Below, one piece after another: positions 8,799 through 37,164 of a stretch of 64,000 nucleotides of DNA. A program made the position numbers and the translations under genes. The stretch is taken from positions 12,384 through 76,383 of the forward strand of contig JBMYRG010000013.1 in assembly GCA_049602055.1 (NCBI GenBank), in the 5' to 3' direction. Position 1 is the first letter of the stretch, and each line of letters opens with the position of its first letter. The notes under the pieces are model-generated. The model did not search any database. It was not told the origin of the DNA and worked only from the letters and a program-made list of their open reading frames with translations. This DNA is from Alphaproteobacteria bacterium. GTDB lineage: Bacteria > Pseudomonadota > Alphaproteobacteria > MPNO01 > UBA2964.

Positions 8799-9298
8799 GA
8801 ATACCCGAGCACAGAAGGCCTTCAGCACTTTATATTCTCATAATTCTAGCTATCGTCGTCCTGTTTATCGCCACAAGCTATCAGTACAAAGTTACTGATC
8901 GGATGTTTCCGTTGATGGTGGGATATTTTGCCATACCACTCTTGATCATGGATTTACTTGCCCTGACCGATAGTAAGGTTGGCGAAAAAATTTCAATTTT
9001 CTTTTCCGCCAAGACGCCGGAAAAGGTCGATGAAGATGCCGATCCAACCGTCCGCACGCTGTCACAGGAACTTAGGATCTTTATGTGGATGGGTGCCCTT
9101 GTCCTGGGTATTTATCTGATTGGCTTTTTGCCCTGCACGCCGGTCTTTGTTTATTGCTGGATGAAATATCGCGGCGGATATTCTGTACGCGAGAGTGCCT
9201 ATCTGGCGATCGGCACCATCGTATTCGTCTACGTCCTGTTCGAAATAATTCTGCAGTACGAATTATATCCGGGCATCTTCCTGTACTGGTACGGCTGA
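8795..9298 (+). CDS. tctB: Tripartite tricarboxylate transporter small permease (TctB-like)
   Basis: 167 aa protein with four TM segments. It overlaps the tctA stop with an ATGA arrangement, which suggests translational coupling. Confidence 0.65.
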   Translation: MRIPEHRRPSALYILIILAIVVLFIATSYQYKVTDRMFPLMVGYFAIPLLIMDLLALTDSKVGEKISIFFSAKTPEKVDEDADPTVRTLSQELRIFMWMGALVLGIYLIGFLPCTPVFVYCWMKYRGGYSVRESAYLAIGTIVFVYVLFEIILQYELYPGIFLYWYG

Positions 9299-20816: not shown

Positions 20817-22157
20817 ATGAACAGCCCCTCCCCCTATTCACCAATAGCTCGACTTATCGTTCTGTTGATTGGTCTTCTTTGGATCCTCGGGCTGGTTCAG
20901 GTTCTGTTTCCGACACCGCAAGTTTCGACGGTTATGGTTGGCCTCCTTGCCTGTCTGGCAATCATTGCTCTGCCACAGGCCACGTGGAACGTAAAACTTC
21001 TGTGCGCTTTTCTTGCGATTTCAACGATCTCGCTGGCCTATTTCTATGATCAATGGGCCGCTATCGAGGGCGGATTAACACGCGCTGCCATCTTCCCCGC
21101 ATTTTTGGCGACAATCGTCTTGTTGCGGGCTACGGCAGATCAGCGACCAGAAATCGGCGTGGCCCGAGGCCTTTTTACGGCCCTCGATCGAGAGCGACGG
21201 GACAGCGGCTTGGTCGTCGGCGGTTTTCTTGTTGGTTCTATTCTGCAAGTTGGCGTGTTTGCCATTATGGCACCGATTCTTGGTCGCGATGCACCCGCAA
21301 GTGAGCGTCGGGAAGTCTTTGTTGCCGCGATGCGCGGCATGGCGCTTGTTCCTCTTTGGTCGCCATTTGTCGTAGGGATGGCAGTCGCCAGCCAATATTT
21401 ACCTAAAGTTCCCTTGTGGCAGATCATGTTTCTGGGGCTGGCGCTATCTGCCTTCTGCATCGTGTTATCGATCATCTTTTTTGATCGCAAAGGAGGGCTC
21501 AGGGCCCTTTGGCAATCACTTATGACTCTGGCACCCGTCGCGCCACCAATTGCCATTGCCGCTTTGCTCGTCGTAGGAACGGCCCTCGGCACCGGGTTTT
21601 CAACGTTGCAGGCACTGGTATTGGCAATGCCCCTGCCCTGTCTGCTGGCCGTTGCCCTCGCACCTGGCGGGTCCATCCCAACAGCCCTGCGTGCAACTGG
21701 TCAAAGAGTAACGCGGATAGGTCCTGAAACGGCGATCCTGACCTTCGCCACAATCCTCGGTGCCGTCTTCGAAGCAGCCCTCCCTGATATGGGGCTTCTT
21801 GATTGGTTGCAGAGCTTAATGCTCTCGCCCACCTTTATTATATTTTTTGTTATCACGTTTATGAACCTAATGGGGCTGATGGCTATTCACTCCATCGTCT
21901 CCGGCACGATATTACTTGTTCTCTTTACGAATATTCCGACCGGCCTGTCAGACCTCGTCTTTATGCAGGCGCTTCTAACAGGCTGGGGATTGAACACCGC
22001 TATTTCCTTGAGCAGCCTCTCGGTCGTAACCGGTGCTACGATGTTCGACCTGCCAATGACCCGCCTTATTAGCTGGAGTAATATAATTTATGTCTTTGTT
22101 GGCGGTGCCCTTTGTGCCCTAATTCTGTCCGCCATTAATCCGGTTCTCGTGGCATAA
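20817..22157 (+). CDS. Polytopic inner-membrane protein of unknown function (about 12 TM segments)
   Basis: 446 aa protein that is hydrophobic throughout. I found no recognisable transporter signature. Confidence 0.5.
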   Translation: MNSPSPYSPIARLIVLLIGLLWILGLVQVLFPTPQVSTVMVGLLACLAIIALPQATWNVKLLCAFLAISTISLAYFYDQWAAIEGGLTRAAIFPAFLATIVLLRATADQRPEIGVARGLFTALDRERRDSGLVVGGFLVGSILQVGVFAIMAPILGRDAPASERREVFVAAMRGMALVPLWSPFVVGMAVASQYLPKVPLWQIMFLGLALSAFCIVLSIIFFDRKGGLRALWQSLMTLAPVAPPIAIAALLVVGTALGTGFSTLQALVLAMPLPCLLAVALAPGGSIPTALRATGQRVTRIGPETAILTFATILGAVFEAALPDMGLLDWLQSLMLSPTFIIFFVITFMNLMGLMAIHSIVSGTILLVLFTNIPTGLSDLVFMQALLTGWGLNTAISLSSLSVVTGATMFDLPMTRLISWSNIIYVFVGGALCALILSAINPVLVA

Positions 22158-22241
22158 TGCCCAATGATTTGATAGAAGAAACGGCATTCGGCTTGCCGGA
22201 TTTATAGAAACGCGTAACCAGCCAGTAAGAGCAACTTCACC

Positions 22242-23528
22242 ATGGGCTGTCTTTTTCGTCTCAGCGGTCTTTTTTTTCTCGCAATAATTATCGGATTGCC
22301 AATAGCGATTGCGATGAATGCTGTCCAGGATGTACCCGCCCTCAAAAGACCCGGCGCCATCAATCTGCAGGATTTAAAAAACGCCCAGCAATTGGCCAGG
22401 CGTTTTGATCCTCGCTTAATGCCGCCGGACAGGATCACAGAAATTCGGGCGACAACACGTGAGTTAAACACCGTTCTGAAAGGCGCAATGGCGTCGATTC
22501 CAAATGTCGTAACCACTGTCAAAGTGGCTCGGTTTGGCATCCTCATAGGAATGTCTGTGGAGTTACCAGACAACCCCCTTGGGCGTTACCTCAACATCCG
22601 TACTGTTATTGCGTCTTCTTCACGAGGCCTGAGATTTTACCGCCTTTATGTCGGCAAGGTGGAAATTCCTCAGCAACTCATCGATCCTGCTCTCCGCTAT
22701 GCACTGGATGAAATCGTGGGCAAAGGTAAGGCCGATCCGATTTTGAAGAGCGTTCGCTCCGTTAAGGTCCTGGGTCCAACAATCTATGTTCGCTTTCAGC
22801 CGCCACCGAATTTGTTAAAGGACATTAAAACCGCAGCAAGAAAACGAATACAAATCAGCAGTCCAAAGACCGTAAAACCCTACTATGACCTGATCGAAAA
22901 ACTTGCCGCGCAATATTCCTCGCTGAGCCGGGTTTCCCTGACAGATTTTATACGCCCTCTATTCAAATTAGCAGGGCAGCGATCAAGCTCCGGTGATCCT
23001 ATCGATGAAAACAGGGCAGCCATTTTGGCACTGGTTTTGTATTTCGGCGATTCCCGCTTTGAGCGGTTTATTGGCGAAGTGCGAACTGCTCAGCAGAAAT
23101 CAAAACGGGGGAAAATCTCTCATGTCAGGCTAAATGACCGTCACGATTTTGTTCAGCATTTTGCAATTTCAGCCGGATTGACGCTAACCGGTGGCGAAGA
23201 TACAGCGAATATCATTGGTGTCCTCAAAGAAGTGAAAGACGCCGCCAATAAGAAGAGTGGTTTCAGCTTCACCGATATTGGCGCGGATAGAATGGGTGTC
23301 CGCTTTGCGAAAAAGGCCACCGAAAACCGAAGCAAAGCACTCGAATTTCAGAGAGTGCTGTCCGCCGCAAGCTCAGAACGCAGTTTTTTCCCGACCTTTA
23401 CCGACCTGCCTCAAGGGATGACGACCGCTCAGTTTAAAAGCCGCTATCGCGACACGAAAAGCAAAAAATATAGAGACGAGATTGCGAAAATTGACCGCCG
23501 CATAGATGCCATCGGCATGTATCGATGA
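22242..23528 (+). CDS. Hypothetical protein with an N-terminal membrane anchor (428 aa)
   Basis: One N-terminal TM segment, then a hydrophilic K/R-rich body. Its stop overlaps the downstream EamA start (ATGA). Confidence 0.45.
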   Translation: MGCLFRLSGLFFLAIIIGLPIAIAMNAVQDVPALKRPGAINLQDLKNAQQLARRFDPRLMPPDRITEIRATTRELNTVLKGAMASIPNVVTTVKVARFGILIGMSVELPDNPLGRYLNIRTVIASSSRGLRFYRLYVGKVEIPQQLIDPALRYALDEIVGKGKADPILKSVRSVKVLGPTIYVRFQPPPNLLKDIKTAARKRIQISSPKTVKPYYDLIEKLAAQYSSLSRVSLTDFIRPLFKLAGQRSSSGDPIDENRAAILALVLYFGDSRFERFIGEVRTAQQKSKRGKISHVRLNDRHDFVQHFAISAGLTLTGGEDTANIIGVLKEVKDAANKKSGFSFTDIGADRMGVRFAKKATENRSKALEFQRVLSAASSERSFFPTFTDLPQGMTTAQFKSRYRDTKSKKYRDEIAKIDRRIDAIGMYR

Positions 23529-24466
23529 CCTCAAAACACCCCGGCTCTACCGTCGGAAACCAGGTTCTCATTGGCGCCGCATGGGGCGTCGGCGCGGCGG
23601 CAGCACATTCATTTGTTCCCATCGCCGTCCGATTATTGAGCCACATTCCAGCAATAGAACTTGTTTTTTTCAGAAATTTTTTTGGCCTCCTGATCCTTCT
23701 AAGTATCGTAGGCTGGCGAGGGGTTCGGTTTTGGCAAACCAACCGGCTGGGATTCCATCTACAACGCAATCTCGCAAATTTCACCGGGATGTGGTTGTGG
23801 TTTGCTGGATTGGCCTTTTTACCCATCGCCAAAGCGGTGGCCCTTCATTTCACCGTACCGCTGATGGTCGTCGTGCTCGCGGTTATATTCCTGAAGGAAA
23901 GACCGGGCATCACCCGGCTGACCTGCACATTAATTGGTTTCTGCGGTGTATTGGTGATCTTGAGACCGGGGGCCGTCCCCATCGGCCCCGCGGCATTCCT
24001 GGTCCTCGGATCCGCCCTTTCCTACGCCGGTGTAGCGATCTACACGCGCTCATTGGGTAAGACTGATCACCCGACGACGACGACCTTTTATTACCAGTTT
24101 ACCCTGACAATATTCGCTTCTGTCTCAATGCTCGTAGGGTGGCTTATCGCAACCAATATTCCGGATACCGGAATACCCTTGAACTGGTTCACCTGGGTCA
24201 CGCCAACATTACTCGATTTCCCGGGTCTTCTTCTATTGGCGGTCTCTGGAACCATAGCGCCCTATTGTCTGGTGCGGGCTTTCGTCCACGCCGAGGCTAC
24301 CATTGTCGAACCCATTGAATATTTGCGTCTGCCAATTACCGCCTTTGTTGCCTATCTGGTCTTCGACCAAACGACGGACATATGGGTCTGGATTGGAGCC
24401 AGTGTTATTGCCGGCTCAACCTATTATATGACAAGGCACGAATCCAAAGCGTCAGGACACCACTAA
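23525..24466 (+). CDS. DMT-superfamily transporter (EamA family)
   Basis: 10-TM protein with two EamA halves. Contains 'ILRPGAVPIG' and 'EPIEYLRLPITAFVAYLVFDQTTDIWVWIGASVI'. Confidence 0.8.
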   Translation: MTSKHPGSTVGNQVLIGAAWGVGAAAAHSFVPIAVRLLSHIPAIELVFFRNFFGLLILLSIVGWRGVRFWQTNRLGFHLQRNLANFTGMWLWFAGLAFLPIAKAVALHFTVPLMVVVLAVIFLKERPGITRLTCTLIGFCGVLVILRPGAVPIGPAAFLVLGSALSYAGVAIYTRSLGKTDHPTTTTFYYQFTLTIFASVSMLVGWLIATNIPDTGIPLNWFTWVTPTLLDFPGLLLLAVSGTIAPYCLVRAFVHAEATIVEPIEYLRLPITAFVAYLVFDQTTDIWVWIGASVIAGSTYYMTRHESKASGHH

Positions 24467-24468
24467 AC

Positions 24469-25962
24469 CTATTTTGTTGGCGGCTGATTGGTATTGAGCA
24501 GCCAACCCCATTTCTCCTTAGCGCGAGCATAGGTTTCTTTGTCTGGTGTATTGACCTTGGGATACCGATCCATCCAGTGGAACGGCTTGCAGGCATTGAT
24601 AATCGCACGACTGTTGGTCGTATCGCCAATTTCCTTGCGATCAGGATGGATCGACGGATCGAGTCCCGTGGACCAGCCTCGGTTGATGATATCGATATCC
24701 GTTGCCGGATCTGCCCGGAAACAAAGCGCCCACATGACGTCTTCCAGATTCGACGCATCGATATCGTCATCAACGACGACAACGAATTTCCCGGCATACG
24801 CCCCGAGACGACACTGCGAGGCAATCTGGCCCGCCTGTGTCGCATGTCCCGGATAGCGCTGTTTAATAGACACGGCAGTAAACATGCGCCCGCCGCCACA
24901 TTCATGGCACCAGGCAACCTGAACATCAGGAACGCCAACCGCTTCGATCTGCTCCTTGAGAAGCGCCGAGCGCACCACGGCCCGATAACGCGACTGTTCC
25001 TCTGGCGGACGTTGCGGCGGACAACCGAGCATGATCGGATCATTACGATGATAGATAGCCTTAATATCCAGCGTCGGTCCATTATGTTCAGGATTCCCGT
25101 AATACCCTGTCCATTCGCCGAATGGTCCTTCAGAGTGGAGTTTGTCCGGATAGCAAAAGCCTTCGAGGACAATCTCGGCATTTGCGGGAAACGGCAGCCC
25201 AGTATGTTTGCCGATGACGCATTCAACCGGACGGCCACGATAGGCGCCCATGATGTCAAATTCGCAAACGCCATACGGAATTTCCGATGACGACATCAGA
25301 AAGCTAAGCGGATCAACACCGACGACAACGCAGACCGGCATGGGCAGGTTCTTGGCCATGTATTTTTGACGATGCAGCCGACCATGTTTCCCGGGGGAAA
25401 TATAAAACCCGACGGTTTTTTCATCATGCACCATCACGCGGTAGGTACCGACATTGATCCAGTTCTCTTCAGGGTCACGGGTGACATTAAAAGACCCGGT
25501 TCCGATATAACGCCCGCCATCCCCTTCATGCCAAAGCGGTGTCGGTAGAGAAAGCACGTCTACGTCGTCACCTTCCATGATATTTTCCATCACCGGGCCG
25601 GTTTCAACAGTTTTGTAAGGTAGTGGTCTTTGAACGACCTCCTGATAGGCCTTGTTAAAGGCGACACTTAGCTCAAACTTGGTAAGGTCCGGCGGAAAGC
25701 CCAACGTAATATTCTGGCGGCGACCACCAAAGAAGTTGGTAAAGACCCGGTGCCCTTTGGGATAGCCTGGAATTTCATCAAACAAAGCGCAGGGCGCCGT
25801 TTCGCTATGCAGCAGTAATTCCGCCGCCATGCCGATATCTTCTTCCCAGGTCGCTCCTTGAACACGGCGCAGCTCGCCGAGCTTATCGACCTCTTCGATA
25901 TATTCCCGAAGGTCATTAAAGGTGACGTGGTGTTTGAGATTACTGGCTTGCGATCCGTCCAT
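24469..25962 (-). CDS. UbiD-family decarboxylase, paralog B
   Basis: 497 aa protein, collinear with the ORF at 13110..14588 ('LREYIEEVDKLGELRRVQGATWEEDIGMAAELL', 'DGGRYIGTGSFNVTRDPEENWINVGTYRVMVH'). Confidence 0.85.
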   Translation of the reverse strand: MDGSQASNLKHHVTFNDLREYIEEVDKLGELRRVQGATWEEDIGMAAELLLHSETAPCALFDEIPGYPKGHRVFTNFFGGRRQNITLGFPPDLTKFELSVAFNKAYQEVVQRPLPYKTVETGPVMENIMEGDDVDVLSLPTPLWHEGDGGRYIGTGSFNVTRDPEENWINVGTYRVMVHDEKTVGFYISPGKHGRLHRQKYMAKNLPMPVCVVVGVDPLSFLMSSSEIPYGVCEFDIMGAYRGRPVECVIGKHTGLPFPANAEIVLEGFCYPDKLHSEGPFGEWTGYYGNPEHNGPTLDIKAIYHRNDPIMLGCPPQRPPEEQSRYRAVVRSALLKEQIEAVGVPDVQVAWCHECGGGRMFTAVSIKQRYPGHATQAGQIASQCRLGAYAGKFVVVVDDDIDASNLEDVMWALCFRADPATDIDIINRGWSTGLDPSIHPDRKEIGDTTNSRAIINACKPFHWMDRYPKVNTPDKETYARAKEKWGWLLNTNQPPTK

Positions 25963-26107
25963 CGGTGGAGTCTCCTAAATCATATTGATACGCCAAACTA
26001 AGACGATGGGCCCGATCTGTAAATCCAGCTTGCACCGATAGGCTGGCGTGACGAGAGGTTTCGTGCGATGAGATAAAATACCTCAAAGAAATCTAGCGGG
26101 TTCTCCT

Positions 26108-27010
26108 GTGAACGACCAAAACAGCACTGCGAATGCGACCCGTGCCGAGACCCTTCGCGGCATCGGGTGGATGGTGATCGCCGTCGCCGGGCTGGCCGGG
26201 ATTGTCATCGCGGTGCGGGCGCTCAAGCCAGACATGACGGTGCCCCAACTATTATTCTTCCGGGCGTTGATCGGGTTGATTGCCATAGCCGCCATCATGA
26301 TCCCTCAGGAGGGTTTACGGTCCCTCATCACCAAACGGCCCGGTTTTCAGTTCCTGCGCAACGCGACCCATGCCGGTGGACAATATTGCGTGTTTTTCGG
26401 CGTGATTTCTGTACCTCTCGCGGTGGTCACCTCGATTGAATACACCATCCCGGCCCTTACCGCCGCGATCGCCGCGATGACGATAGGCGAAAAGGTTAAC
26501 CGCTACCGCTGGATCGGCATGGCGGTGAGCTTTCTCGGGGTCATGATTATCGTCCGCCCTGGCATCGTCCCCGTCGGTATTCCGACAATGATGGTGATTT
26601 TTGGCGCAGTGTTATTTTCCGCCCAGAACGTCATGGTCAAAGTTCTGTCGCACACCGAAAGCGCCAGCACCATGGTTTTCACCATGAATGTGATTCAGAG
26701 TCTACTTTTCCTAGGGCCGGCGGTTTATCTGTGGGTGATGCCCGAATGGCATCATCTGCCCTGGCTCCTGTTGCTGGGACTCTCCGGCCTAACCACACAT
26801 TTCTGCCTCAGCAAGGCGCTGGTCCTGATCGACACCTCGGTATGCTTCCCAATCGATTTTCTGCGCCTGCCTTTTATCGCGTTCATCGCCTATCTGCTGT
26901 GGGATGAGACCTTCTCCCCCTGGGTCGCAGTTGGTGCCCTGGTTATCTTCGCCAGCACCTATTTTTCAATCCGCAAGGAAGCCAACGACGCGGACAAGAA
27001 ATCCGGCTAA
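26108..27010 (+). CDS. DMT-superfamily transporter (EamA family)
   Basis: 10 TM segments. Contains 'IVRPGIVPVG' and 'FPIDFLRLPFIAFIAYLLWDETFSPWVAVGALVIFAS'. Confidence 0.8.
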   Translation: MNDQNSTANATRAETLRGIGWMVIAVAGLAGIVIAVRALKPDMTVPQLLFFRALIGLIAIAAIMIPQEGLRSLITKRPGFQFLRNATHAGGQYCVFFGVISVPLAVVTSIEYTIPALTAAIAAMTIGEKVNRYRWIGMAVSFLGVMIIVRPGIVPVGIPTMMVIFGAVLFSAQNVMVKVLSHTESASTMVFTMNVIQSLLFLGPAVYLWVMPEWHHLPWLLLLGLSGLTTHFCLSKALVLIDTSVCFPIDFLRLPFIAFIAYLLWDETFSPWVAVGALVIFASTYFSIRKEANDADKKSG

Positions 27011-27708
27011 CGCTTCGTCATCTGGGTTTTACCAAACAGGATGTCGCGGGATTTGTCATCCAGAACGTCGCGAGTCTTGGCCCGTTTGTCAGTTAGGAGC
27101 TTCATGCCCTCCTGCACCGCCGGGCGTGCAGCGACATCATCAAACCAGCGTTTCACATTGGGGAAATCGTCCCAAGGCTGGCCATGATAGCGATGTACGC
27201 GAACCCAGGGCCAACAGGCCATATCAGCAATTGAGTAATCATCGCCCGCCAGATAGGTCGCTTCCGCCAGCCGTCTGTCCATCACGCCGTAGAGCCGCCC
27301 TGCTTCATCGGTAAAACGGTTGATCGCGTATGGCACCCGTTCCGGCGCGGCGTCACGAAAATGATGCGCTTGTCCGCAGATCGGGCCGAGATTGCCCATC
27401 TGAAACATCAGCCATTGCATCACCTCGTAACGCTTGTTGCTTGACGAGGGCATGAATTTGCCTGTCTTGTCAGCGAGATAAAACAGGATGGCACCCGACT
27501 CAAAAATTGAGACTGGTTTACCCTCCGGTCCTTCTTCATCAACCAAGGCTGGCATCCGATTATTCGGGCTGAGTTCCAGGAATTCAGGTGCAAACTGATC
27601 GCCTGCGGTGATGTCTACGGCGACGACCTGATATTCAAGCCCGCATTCTTCCAGCATGATCGAGACTTTGTGCGCGTTGGGTGTTGGCCAGGCATGCAGT
27701 GTGATCAT
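27007..27708 (-). CDS. Glutathione S-transferase, Nu-class (YfcG/YghU-like)
   Basis: N-terminal thioredoxin fold 'ITLHAWPTPNAHKVSIMLEECGLEY', and 'ESGAILFYLADKTG'. The ATG at 27708 shares its A with the TGA of the upstream EamA gene. Confidence 0.85.
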   Translation of the reverse strand: MITLHAWPTPNAHKVSIMLEECGLEYQVVAVDITAGDQFAPEFLELSPNNRMPALVDEEGPEGKPVSIFESGAILFYLADKTGKFMPSSSNKRYEVMQWLMFQMGNLGPICGQAHHFRDAAPERVPYAINRFTDEAGRLYGVMDRRLAEATYLAGDDYSIADMACWPWVRVHRYHGQPWDDFPNVKRWFDDVAARPAVQEGMKLLTDKRAKTRDVLDDKSRDILFGKTQMTKR

Positions 27709-28577
27709 CAACTGTCTCCCTTGTTACGTGCCCCGCGCTGTACCGCGTAGCTCGTCGCGCAAAAGATGACAATCGCCCCGACCCATGTCCAGATATCCGG
27801 AAGTTCACTAAACAACACCCAGCCAAACGCCGCCCCGATTGGCATGCGCAGAAAGTTTACCGGCTGGACAACGCGAGCCGGCGCCAGCGCAATCCCCTTG
27901 GAGACCGTTACGTAGCCAATCGTTGAGAGGACGGAAGCACCGACAATTGCTGGCATATCGATCCAGAGAGGCGTCTTCCAATCGACAATCGCCATCGGCA
28001 AAGAAATCGGGACTAACAAAAAGTTGGCATAGAATACGATGACCGTCGTCGGTACCGTCTTTGAGAGCGATTTGATCACTGTATTGACGCTCGCATAGCT
28101 CGCTGCGCAGGCGATTGCCGCGACCGCCGCAAACGAAACTTCAATTATGCCCGGCCGTAAAACGATCAACACCCCCGCAAATCCGATAAAGGTCGCCAGC
28201 CAGCTGGCGATATCAGAGCGTTCACGGAGAAAGATAATCGCGAAGGCGATGGTAAAGAGCGGTGTTGCAAATTGCAGGGCAAAGAACTCGGCGACCGGCA
28301 TCCGGCCCGCTGAATAGAACCACAGAAAAATACCAATATAGGAGAAGACTCCCGTCATCAGCACCGCGAAGGGCCGTTTCGGCCAGAGGGAAGAGCCTCG
28401 CAATTGAAAGATCACCGGCGCCAGAATGATCACCGCGATAACCGAGCGGAAAAATGTCAGAAGAAATGGTGAATAGACTTCACCGATATAACGGATCAGC
28501 GTCGCCGAACCGACATAGCAGAAGGCGCTAACCAGCATATAGAAAGCACCCTGGACTGACGCTGGTAGAGCATTCAT
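27708..28577 (-). CDS. DMT/EamA transporter, array member 6 of 6 (3'-most)
   Basis: Paralog in the tandem array, with the conserved C-terminus 'ARVVQPVNFLRMPIGAAFGWVLFSELPDIWTWVGAIVIF'. Confidence 0.85.
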   Translation of the reverse strand: MNALPASVQGAFYMLVSAFCYVGSATLIRYIGEVYSPFLLTFFRSVIAVIILAPVIFQLRGSSLWPKRPFAVLMTGVFSYIGIFLWFYSAGRMPVAEFFALQFATPLFTIAFAIIFLRERSDIASWLATFIGFAGVLIVLRPGIIEVSFAAVAAIACAASYASVNTVIKSLSKTVPTTVIVFYANFLLVPISLPMAIVDWKTPLWIDMPAIVGASVLSTIGYVTVSKGIALAPARVVQPVNFLRMPIGAAFGWVLFSELPDIWTWVGAIVIFCATSYAVQRGARNKGDS

Positions 28578-29455
28578 GTGGCTGCCGTCTTTTCCGGTGT
28601 TTTAGCACCACGCCGAACCGCATAGGTCGTTGCACAAAAGATGATTACAGCGCCAACCCAGGTCCAAAGGTCAGGGAACTCGCTGAACAATACCCAGCCA
28701 AACACGGCGGCAATCGGCATCCGCATAAAGTTCACCGGCTGGATGACCCGTGCCACCGTCAGCGAAATGGCTTTCGTAACAGACAGATAAGCCATTGTCA
28801 GGCACAGGCAGATCGCGACGATGATGCCAAAGTCATAAAGCGTTGGTTGCTTCCAGGTCACTAGCGCCATCGGAATTGAAATCGGAATCATCAGAAGATG
28901 GGCATAATAGACAATCATTGTCGCCGACACGCCTTTAGAGAGCGATTTGATAACCGTATTGTCGCTCGCATAAAAGACCGCACTAATCAGCGCTGCCATG
29001 GCCGCAAAGGAAATCTCGATAATTCCGGGGCGCAGGATTACAAGCACGCCAGCGAAACCAATCAAGGCTGCGATCCAGCTCCGGACATCTGCGTTCTCCC
29101 GTAAAAAGAAAATCGCAAAGGCCATTGTCAGAAGCGGTGTCACAAACTGCAGCGCAAAGAAATCAGCAATCGGCATCGATGCCGTGGCAATGAACCAGAA
29201 AATAATCCCCAGATAGGTAAACACCCCGGTCAGCAAATGCATGAAGAAGCGTTTGGGAATAAATAATAGCCTGCCACCTTCACTAAGATAGACCGGTGCC
29301 AAGGCAACAACCGCGACGAAGGAGCGGATCATTGTCATTTGATATGCGGAATAGGTGTCCCCCACCTCACGCACCAATGAGGCCGCACAAGCGTAGAAAA
29401 CACAGCTCGACAGCATCCAGAGTGACCCGATAACCGCACCGGGTAACTGCTTCAT
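28574..29455 (-). CDS. DMT/EamA transporter, array member 5
   Basis: About 55-60% identical to member 6. ATGA overlaps on both sides. Confidence 0.85.
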   Translation of the reverse strand: MKQLPGAVIGSLWMLSSCVFYACAASLVREVGDTYSAYQMTMIRSFVAVVALAPVYLSEGGRLLFIPKRFFMHLLTGVFTYLGIIFWFIATASMPIADFFALQFVTPLLTMAFAIFFLRENADVRSWIAALIGFAGVLVILRPGIIEISFAAMAALISAVFYASDNTVIKSLSKGVSATMIVYYAHLLMIPISIPMALVTWKQPTLYDFGIIVAICLCLTMAYLSVTKAISLTVARVIQPVNFMRMPIAAVFGWVLFSEFPDLWTWVGAVIIFCATTYAVRRGAKTPEKTAAT

Positions 29456-30315
29456 TTCTTTTTACTCTGCTGAATAGCGTACCAAGCAGCGCCAAAAATG
29501 ATCACCGCCCCAAACCAGGTCCAGAGATCAGGGAACTCGCCAAACACCATAAAGCCCATTGCGGCAGCGATCGGCATGCGCAGGAAGTTCATTGGCTGTA
29601 CGACCCGCGCATCGGCCAGCGAGATACTGGAGGCCACACAAAACTGCGCCAGCGTTGCGAACAACGCCACGGCGATCAGGATCGGCCAGTCTGTCGCAAC
29701 CGGTGTTTTCCAGGTCAGATATGCTGGTATCACGGCAAGCACCAGAACAAGAACGTTGACGTAAAATGTCATCACCATCGGCGAGTCCTGACGCGACAGC
29801 ACTTTAATACAGGTATTTACAAACGCGTATGCCGCTGCCGTGCCGAGCGCTGCAATGACACCAAGCGAAACAGGTATATAGCCTGGTCGGATAATGACCG
29901 TCACACCCAGAAAACCGATTAATGCTGCCAACCAGCTTTTGGCGCTGACTTTCTCGCGCAACAAAATTGCCGCAACGGCAATCGTGAAGAGTGGCGAAAC
30001 AAACTGGATAGCGAAGAAGTCACCAACGGGTATTTTTTCAGTGGCGTAGAACCATAAAAGAATCGAGATATAAGTTAATACGGCCCGCACGCAATGTAGT
30101 GGAAAAGCGGTGGTTTTTAACTCCTTGAGATCGCCCCGCAGGATCAGCGGTGTGAGAACGATCACCCCGACAACACAGCGCAAAAATGTTAGTTCAAAGG
30201 TCGGATAACTACCCGCCAGATAGCGAGTCAGCGTCGCTGAGGATACATAGCAAACCGACGCGCCAAGCATCCACAGAGCGCCCTTGATAGCATTGGAATA
30301 GGCAGCATCGGTCAC
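29452..30315 (-). CDS. DMT/EamA transporter, array member 4 (the GTG start forms a GTGA overlap with the upstream gene)
   Basis: Paralog. The start is placed at the GTG at 30315..30313 (VTDAAYSNAIKGALWML), aligned to the N-termini of the sibling genes. The ORF-track extension to 30546 overlaps the upstream gene by 235 nt and is rejected. Confidence 0.75.
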   Translation of the reverse strand: MTDAAYSNAIKGALWMLGASVCYVSSATLTRYLAGSYPTFELTFLRCVVGVIVLTPLILRGDLKELKTTAFPLHCVRAVLTYISILLWFYATEKIPVGDFFAIQFVSPLFTIAVAAILLREKVSAKSWLAALIGFLGVTVIIRPGYIPVSLGVIAALGTAAAYAFVNTCIKVLSRQDSPMVMTFYVNVLVLVLAVIPAYLTWKTPVATDWPILIAVALFATLAQFCVASSISLADARVVQPMNFLRMPIAAAMGFMVFGEFPDLWTWFGAVIIFGAAWYAIQQSKKK

Positions 30316-31199
30316 TTGGTCGTGGCCTCCTCGCGAATGACATAATACGCAGCCCCAAAAATGACCACGGCACCAACCCAGGTCCAAATGCCGGGCAGCT
30401 GGCCGAACATCACATACCCAACGGCCACCGTAAATGGCATGCGGAGGAAGTCGAACGGCCAGACAATACGCGCATCTGCCGTCGCTATCGCCCGTGCCAG
30501 CGCCCACTGCCCAGCCGTCGTAAAGACGCCAAGGGCTATTATCCATCCGAGAGTGTGTAACGGGGGCAATTGCCAGGCAAATAACAGCGGAATTGCCGCC
30601 ACAACGACCATCACCAGATTGCCAAAGACAGTGATTGTCGTCGTACTTTCAGTGCGCGACAGTTTCTTAATAAAGATATTTGTACAGCTATAGAGCACTG
30701 CGGAAGTGAGTGCTGCCAGCGCCGCGATGGTAATAGTCTCAAACCCCGGTCTCAAAATAATCAGGGTGCCGATAAATCCGACGATGCAGGCTACCCAGCT
30801 ACCAACGCGCGCCTTTTCCCCGAGGAACAGTATCGCCGCGAGAATCATAAAAAGCGGCAGGGTGAATTGCAGGGCATAGACATCAGCGATTGGCATGTTC
30901 GCCAGGGCATAATATGTCGCGCCCATCGCCAGGTAGGTGAACAGGCCGCGCAACAAAAACAGATGCCAGTTCTTCAGGGACTCTTTCCCTGTTGAACCAA
31001 TATGCTTACACAGAAAGGGCAGCAATATGACCGTCGCAACGACCGAACGCCAAAACACAATCTCCATCGTGTTTAGATCGGACGACAACTGCTTAACCAG
31101 TCCGGCATTTATTGAATAGCCGATACCAGACAGTACCATCCACGCGATGCCACGCATGGCAGCGCTGCGGTTGGTCGTGCTGGCGTTGGCCGCGGTCAT
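30312..31199 (-). CDS. DMT/EamA transporter, array member 3
   Basis: Paralog. ATGA overlap with member 2 at 31196-31199. Confidence 0.85.
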   Translation of the reverse strand: MTAANASTTNRSAAMRGIAWMVLSGIGYSINAGLVKQLSSDLNTMEIVFWRSVVATVILLPFLCKHIGSTGKESLKNWHLFLLRGLFTYLAMGATYYALANMPIADVYALQFTLPLFMILAAILFLGEKARVGSWVACIVGFIGTLIILRPGFETITIAALAALTSAVLYSCTNIFIKKLSRTESTTTITVFGNLVMVVVAAIPLLFAWQLPPLHTLGWIIALGVFTTAGQWALARAIATADARIVWPFDFLRMPFTVAVGYVMFGQLPGIWTWVGAVVIFGAAYYVIREEATTK

Positions 31200-32080
31200 G
31201 CCTTTTTTACGCCTCGGCTTTCGCGACGCAGCACATCATAGGCTCCCGCAAAAATGACGACAGCACCAACCCAGGTCCAGATATCTGGCAACTCTGCAAA
31301 CATGACCCATCCAACAGCCACCGACCACGGCAGCCGTAAAAAATTGACTGATTGCACTATGCGGGCATCGGCTTCACGTATGGAGAATGTGAGGCAAACC
31401 ATTGCCAACATAAACAGCACCCCCATGAACAAAATCCCCGGCACTTGTTCCCAGCTCGGTGTCACCCAGTTAATCGCGGCGGGAACAATGGAAAGTAGCG
31501 CCACGATCGAATTAGACACCATCGTAATCATGATAGGGCTCTCGCTGCTGCCGAGTTTGCGAATGGTGATATTGGCTGCAGCAAAAGCGAAAGCCGACAC
31601 AATTGCAGCAAGAGCGCCGGGATTCATCGGGATGATACCCGGACGCACGATGATGAGCGCCCCACAAAAACCGATTACGCAAGATAGCCAACCCCGCAGA
31701 CCGACATACTCTCCGAGTAATAAACCTGCGAGCAAAATAGTGAACAGCGGTACGGTAAAGAGCAGTGATTGGACGTTCGCAATATCCATTACAGAATAGG
31801 CATAGAAAGAAGCGTACATCCCGCCGAACGACAGCAACCCACGAAGGATGTAGAGACCTGAGCGACGACGAATGCCAGCAAATGATCCTTTGTCGAGGCG
31901 CATTGCCAACGGCAGGAGTAACAGGGCGCTGATGCTGCTAAAGAAGAAAAGAAGTTCTGCAACGCCGAAGTCGAAGGACAGTTTTCTGACAAAGCCGCTC
32001 GCCAAAGCCTGAAAGGCTGTTGCCAGCACCATCCACAGAACACCACGGACGACGGCGTTTGATAAAATTCCATTTTTCAT
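31196..32080 (-). CDS. DMT/EamA transporter, array member 2
   Basis: Paralog. The start is set at MKNGILSN (32080), giving an ATGA overlap with member 1. The longer ORF-track version is rejected. Confidence 0.8.
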   Translation of the reverse strand: MKNGILSNAVVRGVLWMVLATAFQALASGFVRKLSFDFGVAELLFFFSSISALLLLPLAMRLDKGSFAGIRRRSGLYILRGLLSFGGMYASFYAYSVMDIANVQSLLFTVPLFTILLAGLLLGEYVGLRGWLSCVIGFCGALIIVRPGIIPMNPGALAAIVSAFAFAAANITIRKLGSSESPIMITMVSNSIVALLSIVPAAINWVTPSWEQVPGILFMGVLFMLAMVCLTFSIREADARIVQSVNFLRLPWSVAVGWVMFAELPDIWTWVGAVVIFAGAYDVLRRESRGVKKA

Positions 32081-32970
32081 GATGTTGGGGATCCAGTCGG
32101 TGCTTGGTTGGCGTTTCGTATTTTGGTTTCGCGCCACACTATGTAGTAAGACGCACCAAAAATCACTGCTGCACCAACCCAGGTCCAAATATCGGGCAAT
32201 TCAAGAAACATGACGTAACCAATCAATGCGGCAAATATCATTCGGGTGAACTGGAAGGGTTGGACCACACGGGCATCCGCTGCACCAACCGCCATCGTAA
32301 AACAGATGCCCCCGACAGCACTGAAAAACGCCGCCCCAAATATCCACGGGATTTGCTCCAGAGTTGGCGTTACCCAGATAAAGACGGTTGGGATCATTGC
32401 CAGCGGCAGCATAAGCAAATTGGAATAAACCGTAATGGTTCCAACACTTTCCGTTCTGGTTAGTAGCTTTATCGTGGTGTTGGAGCCTGCTGACATCATT
32501 GCGGAAGCAATAGCAGCAACTGCGGCCAAGGTAAGCTCGATAACGCCAGGTCGCATAACTATTAACGCTCCGGCAAAGCCAACGAGGCATGCCGCCCAAG
32601 CCTGACGATCTGTTTGTTGTTTAAGGATAAATACGGCGAGCATGATCGTGAACAAGGGGATGGTGAATTGCAGGGCAAACACATCCGCAATCGGCATTTC
32701 TCCCCAGGCGTAAAACAGCGTGACCATCGCGGTATAGGCGAAAAATACCCGTAGACAATATAGAGGTAGGCGACTGGTTCGCATCACGCCAAACCCCTCA
32801 CGAAAAAGCCAGGGCACTAGTAGAAGCAAACCAACAACATTTCGGAAAAGGACCAGCTCTAAAGTCGGCACTTCACCCGCGAGCTGGCGTACACAGGCAC
32901 CGGCTGCAGCGCTGAGCAACATTGCCAGACTCATCCAAAGAATCCCGGCGATAGGACGGTTTGGTTTCAA
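32077..32970 (-). CDS. DMT/EamA transporter, array member 1 (5'-most)
   Basis: Paralog (297 aa) with the conserved 'ADARVVQPFQFTRMIFAALIGYVMFLELPDIWTWVGAAVIF' C-terminus. Confidence 0.85.
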   Translation of the reverse strand: MKPNRPIAGILWMSLAMLLSAAAGACVRQLAGEVPTLELVLFRNVVGLLLLVPWLFREGFGVMRTSRLPLYCLRVFFAYTAMVTLFYAWGEMPIADVFALQFTIPLFTIMLAVFILKQQTDRQAWAACLVGFAGALIVMRPGVIELTLAAVAAIASAMMSAGSNTTIKLLTRTESVGTITVYSNLLMLPLAMIPTVFIWVTPTLEQIPWIFGAAFFSAVGGICFTMAVGAADARVVQPFQFTRMIFAALIGYVMFLELPDIWTWVGAAVIFGASYYIVWRETKIRNANQAPTGSPTS

Positions 32971-33043
32971 CTTTGTTCCTTAGTTGGCGAAGACGTTTCG
33001 CTGCTAGCGAGACGAATTGTGTTTATTTATTAGGTGAAGAATA

Positions 33044-33072
33044 TCGGAAACAACTGACGGACGCACGGTCAG
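33044..33072 (-). terminator. Possible terminator downstream of the 33077..33550 gene
   Basis: Hairpin ctgac-ggacgcacg-gtcag with a T-rich flank on the minus strand. The stem is short. Confidence 0.3.
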
Positions 33073-33076
33073 CTGT

Positions 33077-33550
33077 TTATTCGAAAATGGAAAGCTGGGA
33101 TTCCATGTCGTCGACGCGCATTGGAAAATCAATACCGTCGCGCGCATTCATAATTTTATTTGGCGCTATGAAAGCGAGGTCACGCTGCAAATCTATCGCA
33201 AACCGAGCACTTAAACCTGCTTTCCAGGCGAGAGCGACAATCGTTTTAACGCTTTTAACGCGGACCATGCGTTCGACTGTCGGCATCGGAATTTTGGCGC
33301 GCAATGCGAGTGCTGCTTTGACGAACTCATAGTCTTTATTGTCCAAAGCCGCAGCGAGCGACTCATTCGTCAGTTTGTTTTCATCAAACAAGCGTTTGGC
33401 CCGATAGCGCGGCGCCTCACCATTCTCAGCGAAAAAATAGAGGACCTCAGGCGGCGTGGTGGGATCAGCGGCAAGGGCTTTACGCGCCGCATCGTCATCA
33501 CTTTGCAGAATTCCGCCTAACTCTTGGTACTGTTTGGCTGCCGTTGCCAT
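33077..33550 (-). CDS. Conserved hypothetical protein (157 aa, soluble, alphaproteobacterial-type)
   Basis: Clean ORF with its own intergenic regions. No motif recognised. Confidence 0.5.
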   Translation of the reverse strand: MATAAKQYQELGGILQSDDDAARKALAADPTTPPEVLYFFAENGEAPRYRAKRLFDENKLTNESLAAALDNKDYEFVKAALALRAKIPMPTVERMVRVKSVKTIVALAWKAGLSARFAIDLQRDLAFIAPNKIMNARDGIDFPMRVDDMESQLSIFE

Positions 33551-33666
33551 GGAATCATCTCGTCTATTGAGGTGAATGCTAATGAAACAGCCTTAAAATT
33601 TAGTTTCTTCGTTCGTAGGAATTCGACAGCATTTTATAGATAAGTAACTGAATTTATGGTCTTTAT

Positions 33667-34698
33667 TTAGCCACTGGTCGCATTCGTCTTCCGCGACGTC
33701 AAATCAAAGGCCTCCGCCAGCAGTTCATAGGAACGGAACCGGGCCTCCAAAGTCGGGCACATCGTCAAAACAACAAATTCATCGACATCATAAAGCTTGC
33801 CCGTCGCTAACATCGCATCCCGTACTTGCTCGCCAGTGCCCCAGAAACAGCGCTGACGATTATACACCCTCAGAGCTTCCTCTTGCGGCGGATACACATA
33901 GGCTTCCGCCTCTTCAATCGACGGCACCGGTGCCGCAAGTCCCTTGCGTTGCCGAACAGAGGAAAGGTCACGGCATTTCATCAACTGTTCGGCTTTGTCT
34001 TCTGTGTCGGCTGCCACCGCAAATACGCCGATATTAACGACGGGTTCGGGCCAGGCCTCCGACGGCCGATAGTTGTCGCGATAGGCCGCGACGGCTTGTG
34101 GTCCACCCTCTGCGACAATGAAATGGGCAAATGAAAATGGTACACCGAAATAGGCTGCCATAGCCGCGCTTTGATCACTCGAGCCCAGCATCCAGACATC
34201 CGGCACAGTAGGGCCAGCGGGCATGGCTTTTACATTGGCAAACGGATGATCCTCCGGAAGGTTACCGCTCAGATAGCCCATCATATCGCGAACCTGTGTC
34301 GGATAGTGCTCGGCACCCAGCGCTCCCGGCCCGGTTTGGAGTGCCTGATCTGTTATCCGGTCACTTCCCGGCGCACGCCCGATCCCAAGATCAATTCGCC
34401 CCGGATATAAAGTCTCTATTGTGCGGAAGGTTTCTGCCACTTTCAAAGGGCTGTAATGGGTAAGCATGATCCCACCAGAACCAACCCGTATACCCTGCGT
34501 TCGGCCGGCAACCTGCGGAATCATTATCTCAGGGGCTGCACCGGCGAGCCCATTGCTACTGTGATGCTCTGCCAGCCAGTAGCGGTGATAGCCAAGCCTA
34601 TCGACATGCTCAGCCAAGGCCAACGTATCAGCAACGGCATCTGCAGGGGTAGCGCCGGTTCGTATCGGCGATTGATCTAGAACACTGAGTAAAGTCAT
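33667..34698 (-). CDS. LLM-class flavin-dependent oxidoreductase (luciferase-like monooxygenase)
   Basis: N-terminal 'GYHRYWLAEHHSSNGLAGAAPEIMIPQVAGRTQGIRVGSGGIMLTHYSPLKVAE', typical of LLM TIM-barrel proteins. Length is 343 aa. Confidence 0.8.
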   Translation of the reverse strand: MTLLSVLDQSPIRTGATPADAVADTLALAEHVDRLGYHRYWLAEHHSSNGLAGAAPEIMIPQVAGRTQGIRVGSGGIMLTHYSPLKVAETFRTIETLYPGRIDLGIGRAPGSDRITDQALQTGPGALGAEHYPTQVRDMMGYLSGNLPEDHPFANVKAMPAGPTVPDVWMLGSSDQSAAMAAYFGVPFSFAHFIVAEGGPQAVAAYRDNYRPSEAWPEPVVNIGVFAVAADTEDKAEQLMKCRDLSSVRQRKGLAAPVPSIEEAEAYVYPPQEEALRVYNRQRCFWGTGEQVRDAMLATGKLYDVDEFVVLTMCPTLEARFRSYELLAEAFDLTSRKTNATSG

Positions 34699-34777
34699 GA
34701 AATCATTTTAAACATAGTTGTATATGAATGCACCGGATTGCCTTGGCGGAGTCCGACGTGCCGCATAGAGTGCATCA

Positions 34778-36211
34778 ATGACAGATCAATCACCTTCCGA
34801 AAACACCGCCATCGCAAAAAAAGCAGGATGGCTGGATTTATTTCGGGGAGGGCTCGGCCCTTACACAATTTTACTTAATCTCGGCATCGCGCTGCATGCC
34901 ATCGATATCTTCGTCATCACGACCATTATGCCGACTGTCGTCGCGGACATCGGCGGCATTTCCTTTTATGCCTGGACATCCATGCTCTATATGGTCGGCA
35001 CTATTATCGGCTCTGCCGCGGGAGGTTATTTCCGCGCCCGTTTGGGAACACGACGCGGCTATGTATGGGGTGGCCTGATCTTGCTGGTGGGAACCATTGC
35101 CTGCGCCATTCCACCAGATATGGGAACGCTTTTAGCAGCGAGGGTTGTAAAGGGAATCGGTGGCGGGTTGGTCATTGCGCAGTCGATGGCCCTCATTAGC
35201 GATCTTTATACGCCTTCTATCAGAACCCGCATCCTCGCCTTAATCTCAACAACGTGGACAGTTGCCTCCTTTTTTGGGCCAGGAATTGGTGGAGTCTTTG
35301 CTGAGGTCGATTACTGGCGAGGAGCCTTTTGGGCACAGGCTCCGTTTGTCATCGCCTTTGTCGCGATGTCATGGCACCTCATCCCTGAGAAAGTTAACTC
35401 TGAGCCACATGGCAATTTACCCTGGCGACGCCTGCTCATGCTGGCCGCCGGGGTATTGTCTGTGGGGCTTACCGGTCAATATAAAGCGCCTGTTACTAGT
35501 GCGACGTTAATCTTGTTGGCTGTTTTTCTGGTCTGGATGACCTTCCGGCGCGATCAAGCCTCAGAAACCAAGTTGTTTCCCAGCAATGCCTTGTCCTTAT
35601 TTAAACCGGTGGGGCTCGCCTACTGGTCTTATTTCTTGATTTCAATCACCTATACGACGCTCTTGATTTTCGCGCCTTTATTCCTTCAGGAACTCCATAA
35701 CGTCACCCCTCTTCTGCTCGGTTATTTATCACTCGTCTTCTCAACAGGCTGGACGATCGGCTCGATTGCCGTGGCGGGACTAACAGGCATGAAGGAGCGC
35801 GTGGGATCTGTCGCGGGTATGGTGTTCGCTGCGGCGACTACAGTTGCCTTTACAGTGGCAATCCTGTCCGGAACCGTCACGATGATTACGATATGGATTA
35901 CGCTGGTGGGCTTCGGCATAGGCGTAACGAATGTCTTGATGACGAGTTACGGGATGAGTGTCGCGCAAGAAGGCGAAGAGGGAATCACTGCCGCTGCAAT
36001 GCCGACAATTCGGTCGCTTGGGGTTGCCTTTGGGGCTGCAGCAGCTGGACTTGTCGCGAATAGTGCCGGGCTAGACGAAAGTACCTCCAGAGAGACCATC
36101 TATCGAGTCGCGGCCTGGGTTCTCGGCTTCACAGCGTTGATTCCCGCCTTCGCGGCCTTTATTTGCTACAGAGCCGTCGGTTGGGGCTGGAAATTCCGCA
36201 CCGGTCGCTAG
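34778..36211 (+). CDS. MFS transporter (14-TM, DHA2-like drug/metabolite:H+ antiporter)
   Basis: 477 aa protein with about 14 hydrophobic segments, and an MFS motif 'G..RARLGTRRG' between TM2 and TM3. Confidence 0.75.
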   Translation: MTDQSPSENTAIAKKAGWLDLFRGGLGPYTILLNLGIALHAIDIFVITTIMPTVVADIGGISFYAWTSMLYMVGTIIGSAAGGYFRARLGTRRGYVWGGLILLVGTIACAIPPDMGTLLAARVVKGIGGGLVIAQSMALISDLYTPSIRTRILALISTTWTVASFFGPGIGGVFAEVDYWRGAFWAQAPFVIAFVAMSWHLIPEKVNSEPHGNLPWRRLLMLAAGVLSVGLTGQYKAPVTSATLILLAVFLVWMTFRRDQASETKLFPSNALSLFKPVGLAYWSYFLISITYTTLLIFAPLFLQELHNVTPLLLGYLSLVFSTGWTIGSIAVAGLTGMKERVGSVAGMVFAAATTVAFTVAILSGTVTMITIWITLVGFGIGVTNVLMTSYGMSVAQEGEEGITAAAMPTIRSLGVAFGAAAAGLVANSAGLDESTSRETIYRVAAWVLGFTALIPAFAAFICYRAVGWGWKFRTGR

Positions 36212-36267
36212 AAACTCACGGTATTGCGCCATAGAATTTGCAAGACCTTTTAGATGAGGATTTAACA

Positions 36268-37164
36268 ATGACGATCAAAACCGTCGCGATATTGAGCCCT
36301 GGCGAAATGGGTGCCGCAACTGGCAAGGCGTTTCAGGAACATGGCTTCGATATCATCACGTCTCTTGATGGTCGCAGTGAAACGTCGCGTCAACGCGCCG
36401 CCGCTGCTGGATTTCGCGACTGCGGTTCTATCGCGTCCGTCCTCGCAGAAGCTGATATCGTGTTTTCTATTTTACCGCCCGGCGATGCGCTAGCTCAGGC
36501 CGAGCGTGTTGCGGCCGCAATGAAAGAAACAGGACACACACCCCCATATTTCGATTGCAACGCCGTATCTCCCGAAACTGCCGCACAGATCGGCGATGTC
36601 ATCGAAGCCGCCGGTGCCGCCTATATTGATGGAGGCATCGTTGGTAATCCTCCTGGGGCCTCCGTTCCAACCCGCTTTTTTGTGAGCGGTAGCGGTGCTG
36701 AAGAAATGAACGTGTTCGATGGAAAAGGTGTGGACATCAAGCAATGTGGCCCCGAGTCGGGGAAAGCATCCGCCATTAAGATGTGTTATGCGGGCATAAC
36801 CAAAGGCACCAGCGCTTTGCATGCGGCGATGCTGATGGCAGCCGAAAAGCTCGGTATTGCCGACGACCTTCATGACGAACTCATCTATAGTCAGGGAGCG
36901 ATGTATAAACGTATGGAAGCGCTGACGTCGGCCCTTCCCGCTGTTTCAGACCGTTATATCGGAGAAATGGAAGAAATAGCGAAAACCATGGGGGCGATTG
37001 GCATGCCAACAGGGTTTCATGACGGTTCAGCCGAGCTTTACGGGTTAATGACCAAATCTCCCTACGCCTCTGAAATTCGCGAGACCGTCGATAAAAGCCG
37101 GACGATGCGTCAAACTGTGGAAGGGTGCGCAGCGGTCGTCGGCAGCAAAGACGCCGCCGAATAA
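36268..37164 (+). CDS. NAD(P)-binding oxidoreductase (6-phosphogluconate-dehydrogenase-like Rossmann domain plus DUF1932-like C-terminus)
   Basis: 'KTVAILSPGEMGAATGKAF' dinucleotide fold. The start is set at MTIKTVA, which has a GAGGA RBS. Confidence 0.6.
   Translation: MTIKTVAILSPGEMGAATGKAFQEHGFDIITSLDGRSETSRQRAAAAGFRDCGSIASVLAEADIVFSILPPGDALAQAERVAAAMKETGHTPPYFDCNAVSPETAAQIGDVIEAAGAAYIDGGIVGNPPGASVPTRFFVSGSGAEEMNVFDGKGVDIKQCGPESGKASAIKMCYAGITKGTSALHAAMLMAAEKLGIADDLHDELIYSQGAMYKRMEALTSALPAVSDRYIGEMEEIAKTMGAIGMPTGFHDGSAELYGLMTKSPYASEIRETVDKSRTMRQTVEGCAAVVGSKDAAE

Follow-up and report, generated by a model that had tools for sequence, protein, structure and literature searches.

The characterised ten-transmembrane (10-TM) members in the superfamily of drug/metabolite transporters (DMT) are encoded by single genes, unlike the tandem array analyzed here. 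This array is composed of six EamA/DMT genes, named E1 to E6, followed by a gene for a glutathione S-transferase (GST), and it occupies positions 27007-32970 on the minus strand of a 64,000-nucleotide stretch of contig JBMYRG010000013.1 from an alphaproteobacterial genome assembly. The whole stretch is called the window hereafter, and all coordinates refer to it unless a relative is named. YddG (PDB 5I20), a 10-TM protein of the DME/EamA type, and the array proteins are alike in possessing two EamA repeats, about 290 residues and ten TM helices. The sequence identity between YddG and the array protein is about 19%, and no characterised ortholog is known. Paired small multidrug resistance (SMR) heterodimers belong to the same superfamily, in which the SMR proteins do function as hetero- or homodimers, and there the partners are encoded by adjacent co-transcribed genes. 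SMR proteins possess about four TM helices, and a single pathway arises only through their dimerisation (PMC9574504). SMR partners are half-size subunits, whereas E1-E6 are fused double-repeat 10-TM proteins of 287-297 residues.

Abundance of EamA genes is a feature described in SAR11, where EamA paralogs number about 11 per Mb, with up to 17, and fall in 22 sequence clusters (PMC11796062). Transporter paralogs in SAR11 were read as widening the range of usable substrates (PMC11796062). Like the host of the array, SAR11 are marine oligotrophic Alphaproteobacteria rich in EamA genes, and the window alone contains 10 in 64 kb. The SAR11 study dealt with copy number and diversity across the core and flexible genome, and it reported neither a conserved overlapped tandem operon nor a GST partner (PMC11796062). 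Our literature search turned up no paper on a bacterial tandem EamA operon or on an operon of EamA genes with a GST, in agreement with the original prediction made from the DNA letters, which knew of no described operon with this architecture. Against this background, the array represents a conserved variation in architecture on a known phenomenon and is made of ordinary family members. With a probability of about 0.7, it encodes a co-transcribed battery of self-contained 10-TM carriers with diverged specificities together with a YfcG-like oxidoreductase, and it is inherited vertically. The features of the array are as follows.

32971-33076, minus strand: array leader and presumed promoter region, 106 nt; hairpin at 33051-33075 followed by TTT; Shine-Dalgarno of E1, AAGGA, at 32977-32981
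32077-32970, minus strand: E1, EamA/DMT permease, 297 residues, TTG start; first gene of the array, two PF00892 stretches
31196-32080, minus strand: E2, EamA/DMT permease, 294 residues; ATGA overlap with the stop of E1
30312-31199, minus strand: E3, EamA/DMT permease, 295 residues; ATGA overlap with the stop of E2
29452-30315, minus strand: E4, EamA/DMT permease, 287 residues, GTG start; GTGA overlap (30312-30315) with the stop of E3
28574-29455, minus strand: E5, EamA/DMT permease, 293 residues; ATGA overlap with the stop of E4
27708-28577, minus strand: E6, EamA/DMT permease, 289 residues; ATGA overlap with the stop of E5
27007-27708, minus strand: YfcG-like (Nu-class) GST, putative glutathione-dependent disulfide oxidoreductase, 233 residues; GST_N and GST_C domains

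Sequence relationship and fold of E1-E6

The list of open reading frames and the sequence itself revealed five 4-nt overlaps within the array, four of them ATGA (E1/E2, E2/E3, E4/E5 and E5/E6) and one GTGA (E3/E4). The ATG of the GST (27708-27706) and the TGA of E6 have one A in common. These junctions are exactly as originally described. The window possesses ten EamA genes in all, six of them in the array. The other four, at 23525-24466, 26108-27010, 38331-39248 and 48389-49360, had not been mentioned in the original prediction. Two of these (23525-24466 and 26108-27010) are on the plus strand within 4 kb and are 25-33% identical to E1-E6.

Pairwise amino acid identity among E1-E6 ranges from 33 to 57% with a mean of about 40%. 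E5 and E6 are the closest pair (57%), while the weakest pair, E2 and E5, still aligned by BLASTP over 283 residues with one gap (E=1e-51). The six genes are true paralogs, as had been claimed, and the identity lies far above the noise level expected of unrelated EamA genes that happen to be adjacent; the predicted range of 40-60% was somewhat too high. The C-terminal block quoted originally as a common signature is found in all six proteins, with E5 (TVA) and E6 (APA) differing at its ADA residues. Twenty-seven alignment columns are invariant and every open reading frame is intact.

Each of the six proteins contains two PF00892 stretches, with whole-protein E-values of 1e-24 to 5e-35 and scores of 87-121 bits against a cut-off of 28.2. 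A structure model was made for E6 with AlphaFold2, and E1-E5 align to E6 with at most a few gaps. The model (predicted local distance difference test score 88, predicted TM-score 0.85) has ten TM helices, of which TM4 and TM9 are broken. Foldseek comparison of this model with the PDB gave YddG (5i20) as the best match (E=3e-7) and a TM-score of 0.81 to TPT (5y78), and the Foldseek probability was 1.00 for YddG, TPT, SLC35B1, LicB, Vrg4 and CST. In sequence searches against the PDB, phmmer with E6 gave no matches, and a profile search gave marginal LicB and YddG matches which are not usable for mapping TM9 residues. From domain content and model, E1-E6 are predicted to be complete 10-TM EamA/DMT permeases with the two repeats in one polypeptide.

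Conservation and age of the array

To place the array among its relatives, the loci were collected by neighbourhood look-ups and a scan of a genome collection and mapped locally by BLAST; they are referred to by their numbers (L002 and so on). The array locus recurs in 19 species-level metagenome-assembled genomes (MAGs) of uncultured marine Alphaproteobacteria and in Tara and ENA scaffolds, with 3-6 copies of the EamA gene. The homologs come from uncultured marine Alphaproteobacteria annotated as 'Rhodospirillaceae bacterium' or 'UBA2964'. The exact E6 sequence is on record elsewhere in one Logan contig only, with identical gene order. The shared order is LLM monooxygenase - (DUF2336) - EamA array - GST - EamA(-) - UbiD - EamA(-) - two unannotated genes. 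Thus the synteny search that had been proposed found the EamA array with GST in other genomes (GST in 17 of the 19 MAGs), and the uniqueness implied by the original prediction proved wrong, as the locus is conserved throughout the clade and there are independent EamA arrays in other genomes.

The independent arrays were found in other uncultured Alphaproteobacteria, represented by marine MAGs (L074, L062, L064 and L068, also L080). The one in L074 (3237-13300) has nine EamA genes (3+6) on one strand in 10 kb with several 4-nt overlaps. Like E1-E6, the arrays of L074, L062, L064 and L068 consist of head-to-tail EamA genes, many with 4-nt overlaps; they differ in being 31-39% identical to E1-E6, in lacking orthologous flanks and in having no adjacent YfcG-like GST. 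No description of these arrays was found in the literature as far as it was searched.

All six copies are present in the window, L008, L009, L012, L014, L021-L023, L006/7 and L056+L011. E1 is missing in L002/L013 and L010, which keep E2-E6. The deeper relatives retain different subsets, namely E1-E4 with one E5/6 in L015, E1, E2, E4 and E6 in L017, E2, E3 and E5 in L018/19, E2, E4 and E5/6 in L020 and L005, and E1, E2 and E6 in L024. Every related locus that covers the region has E2, which holds for no other copy. Positional 1:1 orthologs are 69-95% identical, compared with 33-57% between paralogs. In the phylogenetic tree the orthogroups of E1, E2, E3 and E4 have bootstrap values of 100, E5/6 has 95 and the crown-clade ortholog group of E5 has 100. 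The basal split between {E1, E2, E3} and {E4, E5, E6} is supported by a bootstrap of 100, and the single E5/6 copy of the deep relatives has no settled placement.

Selection on the copies was estimated from the ratio of nonsynonymous (dN) to synonymous (dS) substitution rates. Interspecies dS is about 0.7 to more than 2, or saturated. The dN/dS is 0.02-0.08 for every copy, equal to the range of the neighbouring enzymes (E1 0.04-0.06; E2 0.035-0.065; E3 0.03-0.08; E4 0.02-0.05; E5 0.02-0.035). Since each copy has 1:1 orthologs, dN/dS is low and the paralogs are only 33-57% identical, the duplications are ancient, and each copy is maintained and functional. The alignment and phylogeny called for in the original prediction thereby date the duplications as old, with orthogroup bootstraps of 95-100 and saturated dS.

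The array grew by stepwise tandem duplication, in which the lineages of {E1, E2, E3} and {E4, E5/6} separated first and E5 and E6 last. The ancestor shared by all genomes with the array already had at least five copies. The opposite possibility, that the copies are equivalent products of recent amplification which are kept for dosage or are partly decaying, has in its favour that tandem arrays often arise through amplification and that copy number differs between relatives. It is effectively refuted by the 33-57% identity of the paralogs, the absence of long identical tracts in the DNA repeats between copies (60-76% identical), the 1:1 orthologs of every copy across species with saturated dS, the dN/dS of 0.02-0.08, the intact reading frames and the 27 invariant columns. 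Recent amplification and pseudogenisation were both rejected on the dN/dS and the ortholog trees, and gene conversion among the copies was likewise rejected, the DNA repeats being just 60-76% identical.

The region is ordinary chromosome, with queA/tgt nearby and GC content unchanged across the array. Most likely, the array is a chromosomal operon passed on vertically in a lineage of uncultured marine Alphaproteobacteria (the 'UBA2964' or 'Rhodospirillaceae bacterium' MAGs). Comparison of the whole locus in L008, L009 and L012 with the window showed a mosaic similarity. E1 of the window is 95% identical to that of L012 but 88% to that of L009, while E3 is 79% identical to L012 and 92% to L009, and the EamA paralog at 26108-27010 (Edn) shows 86% and 96%, respectively. 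This pattern suggests that closely related lineages have recombined within the locus.

Expression of the array and action of its proteins

The original prediction of one polycistronic, translationally coupled transcript agrees with the common strand, the overlaps and the lack of internal signals. In all related loci (about 20 genomes), nearly all junctions keep the 4-nt overlap. In a consensus scan of the array, promoter-like sites numbered 3 against 10.2 +/- 3.6 expected from shuffles and terminator-like sites 20 against 14.1 +/- 4.4, and within the array none of the terminator-like sites shows a convincing T tract. Thus neither kind of signal, which had been named as evidence against a single operon, is in significant excess. 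A terminator-like hairpin (33051-33075) with TTT is situated directly 3' of the upstream DUF2336 gene and is kept in close relatives. Because of this hairpin, the array probably begins its own transcript within the 106-nt leader, where the promoter is presumed to lie. The leader is conserved in close relatives at the hairpin and at the Shine-Dalgarno sequence, and the remainder is poorly conserved. An Rfam search (E<=1, 22000-36500) found no riboswitch or other family. The six carriers would then share one promoter upstream of E1 and be produced jointly, the ribosomes moving on to each next gene via the ATGA and GTGA overlaps.

The translation signals of individual genes were also compared. 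The Shine-Dalgarno AAGGA of E1 lies 6 nt upstream of the TTG, and the TTG start with an AGGAA Shine-Dalgarno is invariant in 8 aligned genomes. E4 has GAGGAGG 10 nt upstream of its start (Shine-Dalgarno:anti-Shine-Dalgarno dG -11.8), and its GTG is kept in 14 of the 18 related loci having an E4 ortholog. The GST is preceded by the Shine-Dalgarno sequence AAGGGAGA upstream of its start. In strength, the sites of E4 and the GST are strong, those of E1 and E3 moderate and those of E2, E5 and E6 weak.

The DUF2336 gene upstream of the array (33077-33550, minus strand) encodes just 157 residues compared with the 427 residues of its ortholog in L009. Its residues 1-45 and 42-157 align to 4-50 and 312-427 of that ortholog, respectively, so that by alignment the gene in the window carries an in-frame internal deletion of about 265 residues. 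L002 and L009 have the full-length gene, and L006/L014 lack it.

How the six proteins act was considered in the light of solved structures. In the solved 10-TM DMT members, TM1-4 and TM6-9 of a single protomer form the substrate cavity (PMC8890701; bioRxiv 10.1101/169169). Their dimers are homodimers only, formed via TM5/TM10, or via TM1/8/9 for LicB in nanodiscs (PMC8890701; bioRxiv 10.1101/169169). GsTPT2 is a monomer when purified, as LicB mostly is in detergent (PMC8890701; bioRxiv 10.1101/169169). E1-E6 are full double-repeat proteins, and therefore each should be a self-contained carrier. The relatives keep different subsets of the copies, which is more easily reconciled with independent function than with an obligate complex.

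Between paralogs, identity is 23-34% in TM1-3, TM7 and TM8 and 48-62% in TM4, TM5, TM6, TM9 and TM10, while within orthogroups every helix is 81-94% identical. From this pattern we infer a conserved core with paralog-specific walls, which would imply diverged specificity for related substrates. The carriers may recognise a common chemical group through the shared core and differ in their specificity for related small metabolites. The term 'exporter' in the original prediction was an assumption, as the sequence alone gives no transport direction.

The original prediction had offered a different rationale, namely that DMT proteins function as homo- or heterodimers and that six paralogs could form a combinatorial set. 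Under this alternative the six proteins pair, coupling sets their stoichiometry, and the pairings give different transport properties. Overlaps retained across about 20 species at almost all junctions are typical of subunits made in a fixed ratio, and the segments best conserved between the paralogs include TM5 and TM10, through which TPT, Vrg4 and CST homodimerise (PMC8890701). However, the precedent for heterodimers is found in the SMR branch with its 4-TM proteins, and E1-E6 are not of that type, each protein having both EamA repeats and the full 10-TM fold. The cavity inside one protomer, the homodimers and the monomeric states of the solved members also argue against it, as do the different subsets of 3-6 copies in related genomes, among which E2 alone is universal. 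The combinatorial rationale fits the SMR branch and not this array, and such pairing is considered quite improbable here. Still slightly less probable is a reading in which defined hetero-oligomers assemble via the TM5/TM10 faces or the proteins act in an ordered relay with the YfcG-like reductase. If true, this multi-paralog DMT machine would be of a new kind, such as a shuttle for thiols/disulfides or organic acids, and its fixed stoichiometry would explain why the ATGA overlaps are frozen across about 20 species.

Several observations weigh against a battery of independent carriers. The overlaps frozen over saturated dS would be expected of a stoichiometric complex as well, and the conservation of TM5 and TM10 is compatible with a shared interface. 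A strict scan for specificity-determining positions found just 4 columns. E1-E6 reach no curated NCBIfam DMT equivalog. They show weak similarity below the cut-offs to TIGR00950 ('carboxylate/amino acid/amine transporter'; 47-83 bits compared with 230) and to the profile of YddG, an aromatic amino acid exporter (at most 31 bits compared with 300). Many genes of this genome have no Shine-Dalgarno sequence, so the weak sites at E2, E5 and E6 do not serve to diagnose coupling. The single transcript and the translational coupling are well-founded predictions.

The GST and the conserved neighbourhood

The last gene of the array contains GST_N and GST_C domains. Its closest matches among known structures are those of E. 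coli YfcG (5hfk, E=3e-66; 5hfk/3gx0 about 1e-66), followed by YghU (3c8e, 1e-45). It aligns full-length with YfcG (PDB 3GX0 / 5HFK) from residue 1 and keeps the N-terminal motifs PTPN.HK, SPNN..PA and FESGAIL.YLA. It differs from YfcG by a C-terminal extension of about 30 residues, by its score of 229 bits on the NCBIfam YfcG equivalog NF010579, which is under the cut-off of 332, and by its genomic partner, which is the transporter array or, in deeper relatives, a tartrate dehydrogenase. The earlier assignment to the Nu class thus holds, and 'YfcG-like Nu-class GST' is the right level of claim for this sequence, which is not a curated YfcG equivalog.

The GST is kept at the array locus in 17 of the 19 MAGs and is overlapped with E6 in all crown-clade genomes. 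In L018 and L019 the array is present and the GST is absent. In deeper relatives, a tartrate dehydrogenase gene sits between the last EamA gene and the GST and is tightly linked to the GST. It passes TIGR02089 (560 bits, cut-off 470), and the gene is missing from the crown clade including the window. Its positions in the relatives are as follows.

L015, 7312-8394: tartrate dehydrogenase between last EamA gene and GST
L020, 7211-8302: tartrate dehydrogenase between last EamA gene and GST
L024, 9258-10343: tartrate dehydrogenase between last EamA gene and GST
L005, 10936-11994: tartrate dehydrogenase between last EamA gene and GST

The genomic link between the GST and the array is conserved but not universal. 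These data also bear on the proposal of a thiol/disulfide or glutathione-conjugate shuttle, in which the GST would be the partner of the carriers, reducing imported disulfides or processing glutathione adducts, and the EamA proteins would carry the thiol or conjugate forms across the membrane. Cysteine export by EamA/YdeD-type proteins is the analogy behind it. The proposal gains from the YfcG-like nature of the GST, since the structure depositors name that molecule 'disulfide-bond oxidoreductase YfcG', and from the overlap with E6 and the presence in most MAGs. It loses from the tartrate dehydrogenase that separates the GST from the last EamA gene and is its tight partner instead, from the arrays of L018 and L019 which have no GST, from independent arrays such as that of L074 with no GST nearby, and from the score below the equivalog cut-off. 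The shuttle is thus regarded as unlikely, and independent carriers accompanied by a YfcG-like oxidoreductase are preferred.

Beyond the GST, the conserved neighbourhood in the window includes the following genes.

26108-27010, plus strand: Edn, a distant EamA paralog, 300 residues, 25-31% identical to E1-E6; convergent with the GST
24469-25962, minus strand: UbiD-family decarboxylase of the prenylated flavin mononucleotide type, 497 residues, PF01977 and PF20696; flanked by two plus-strand EamA genes
23525-24466, plus strand: Eup, a distant EamA paralog, 313 residues; its start overlaps by 4 nt with the stop of an unannotated 428-residue gene

Edn and the GST overlap by 4 nt at their stops (27007-27010) and the stop codons share 2 nt; Edn is found there in every related locus covering that region, and Eup is also conserved in relatives. 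Conservation within the locus is highest for the UbiD-family decarboxylase, with 91-99% amino acid identity across relatives. This enzyme passes the cut-off of the UbiD subfamily TIGR00148, and its best specific similarities, to phenylphosphate carboxylase beta and VdcC, are both below cut-off. In the carriers themselves, the arginine at the helix break of TM9 (R244 in E6) is invariant in 42 family members. Taken together, the tartrate dehydrogenase context, the UbiD gene with its flanking EamA genes and the TM9 arginine hint weakly at (hydroxy/aromatic) carboxylate-type substrates.

Other genes were noted around the locus and in relatives. Two clade-wide conserved genes at 20817-23528 (plus strand), which have no Pfam or NCBIfam match, encode a 446-residue polytopic membrane protein and a 428-residue protein with one N-terminal TM segment. 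Some relatives add genes for HpaB-like, TauD-like, ArgE/DapE-family deacylase (Pfam Peptidase_M20) and haem-oxygenase-like proteins. The window segment 13110-16951 (plus strand) holds a further UbiD-family paralog, with 52% identity to the first, and after it an acyl-CoA ligase and a methyltransferase; TctA/TctB tricarboxylate transporter genes are located upstream at 7287-9298. Single-copy genes 58-62% identical to E1 are present in UBA830-type MAGs (L029-L054, e.g. L036, L038 and L044), and these are nearer to E1 than E2 or E3 are. Their neighbours, encoding glutaminyl-tRNA synthetase (GlnRS), a thiamine pyrophosphate enzyme and an amidohydrolase (Amidohydro_3), gave no pointer to a substrate.

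The array alone overturns nothing known about DMT proteins. Among the transporters of marine oligotrophic bacteria, EamA/DMT carriers rank with the most numerous and the least understood, and a clade-wide six-copy array with 1:1 orthologs and variants of 3-6 copies is a natural experiment on the diversification of specificity after tandem duplication. With seven genes in about 6 kb, it is also a compact target for heterologous substrate screening.

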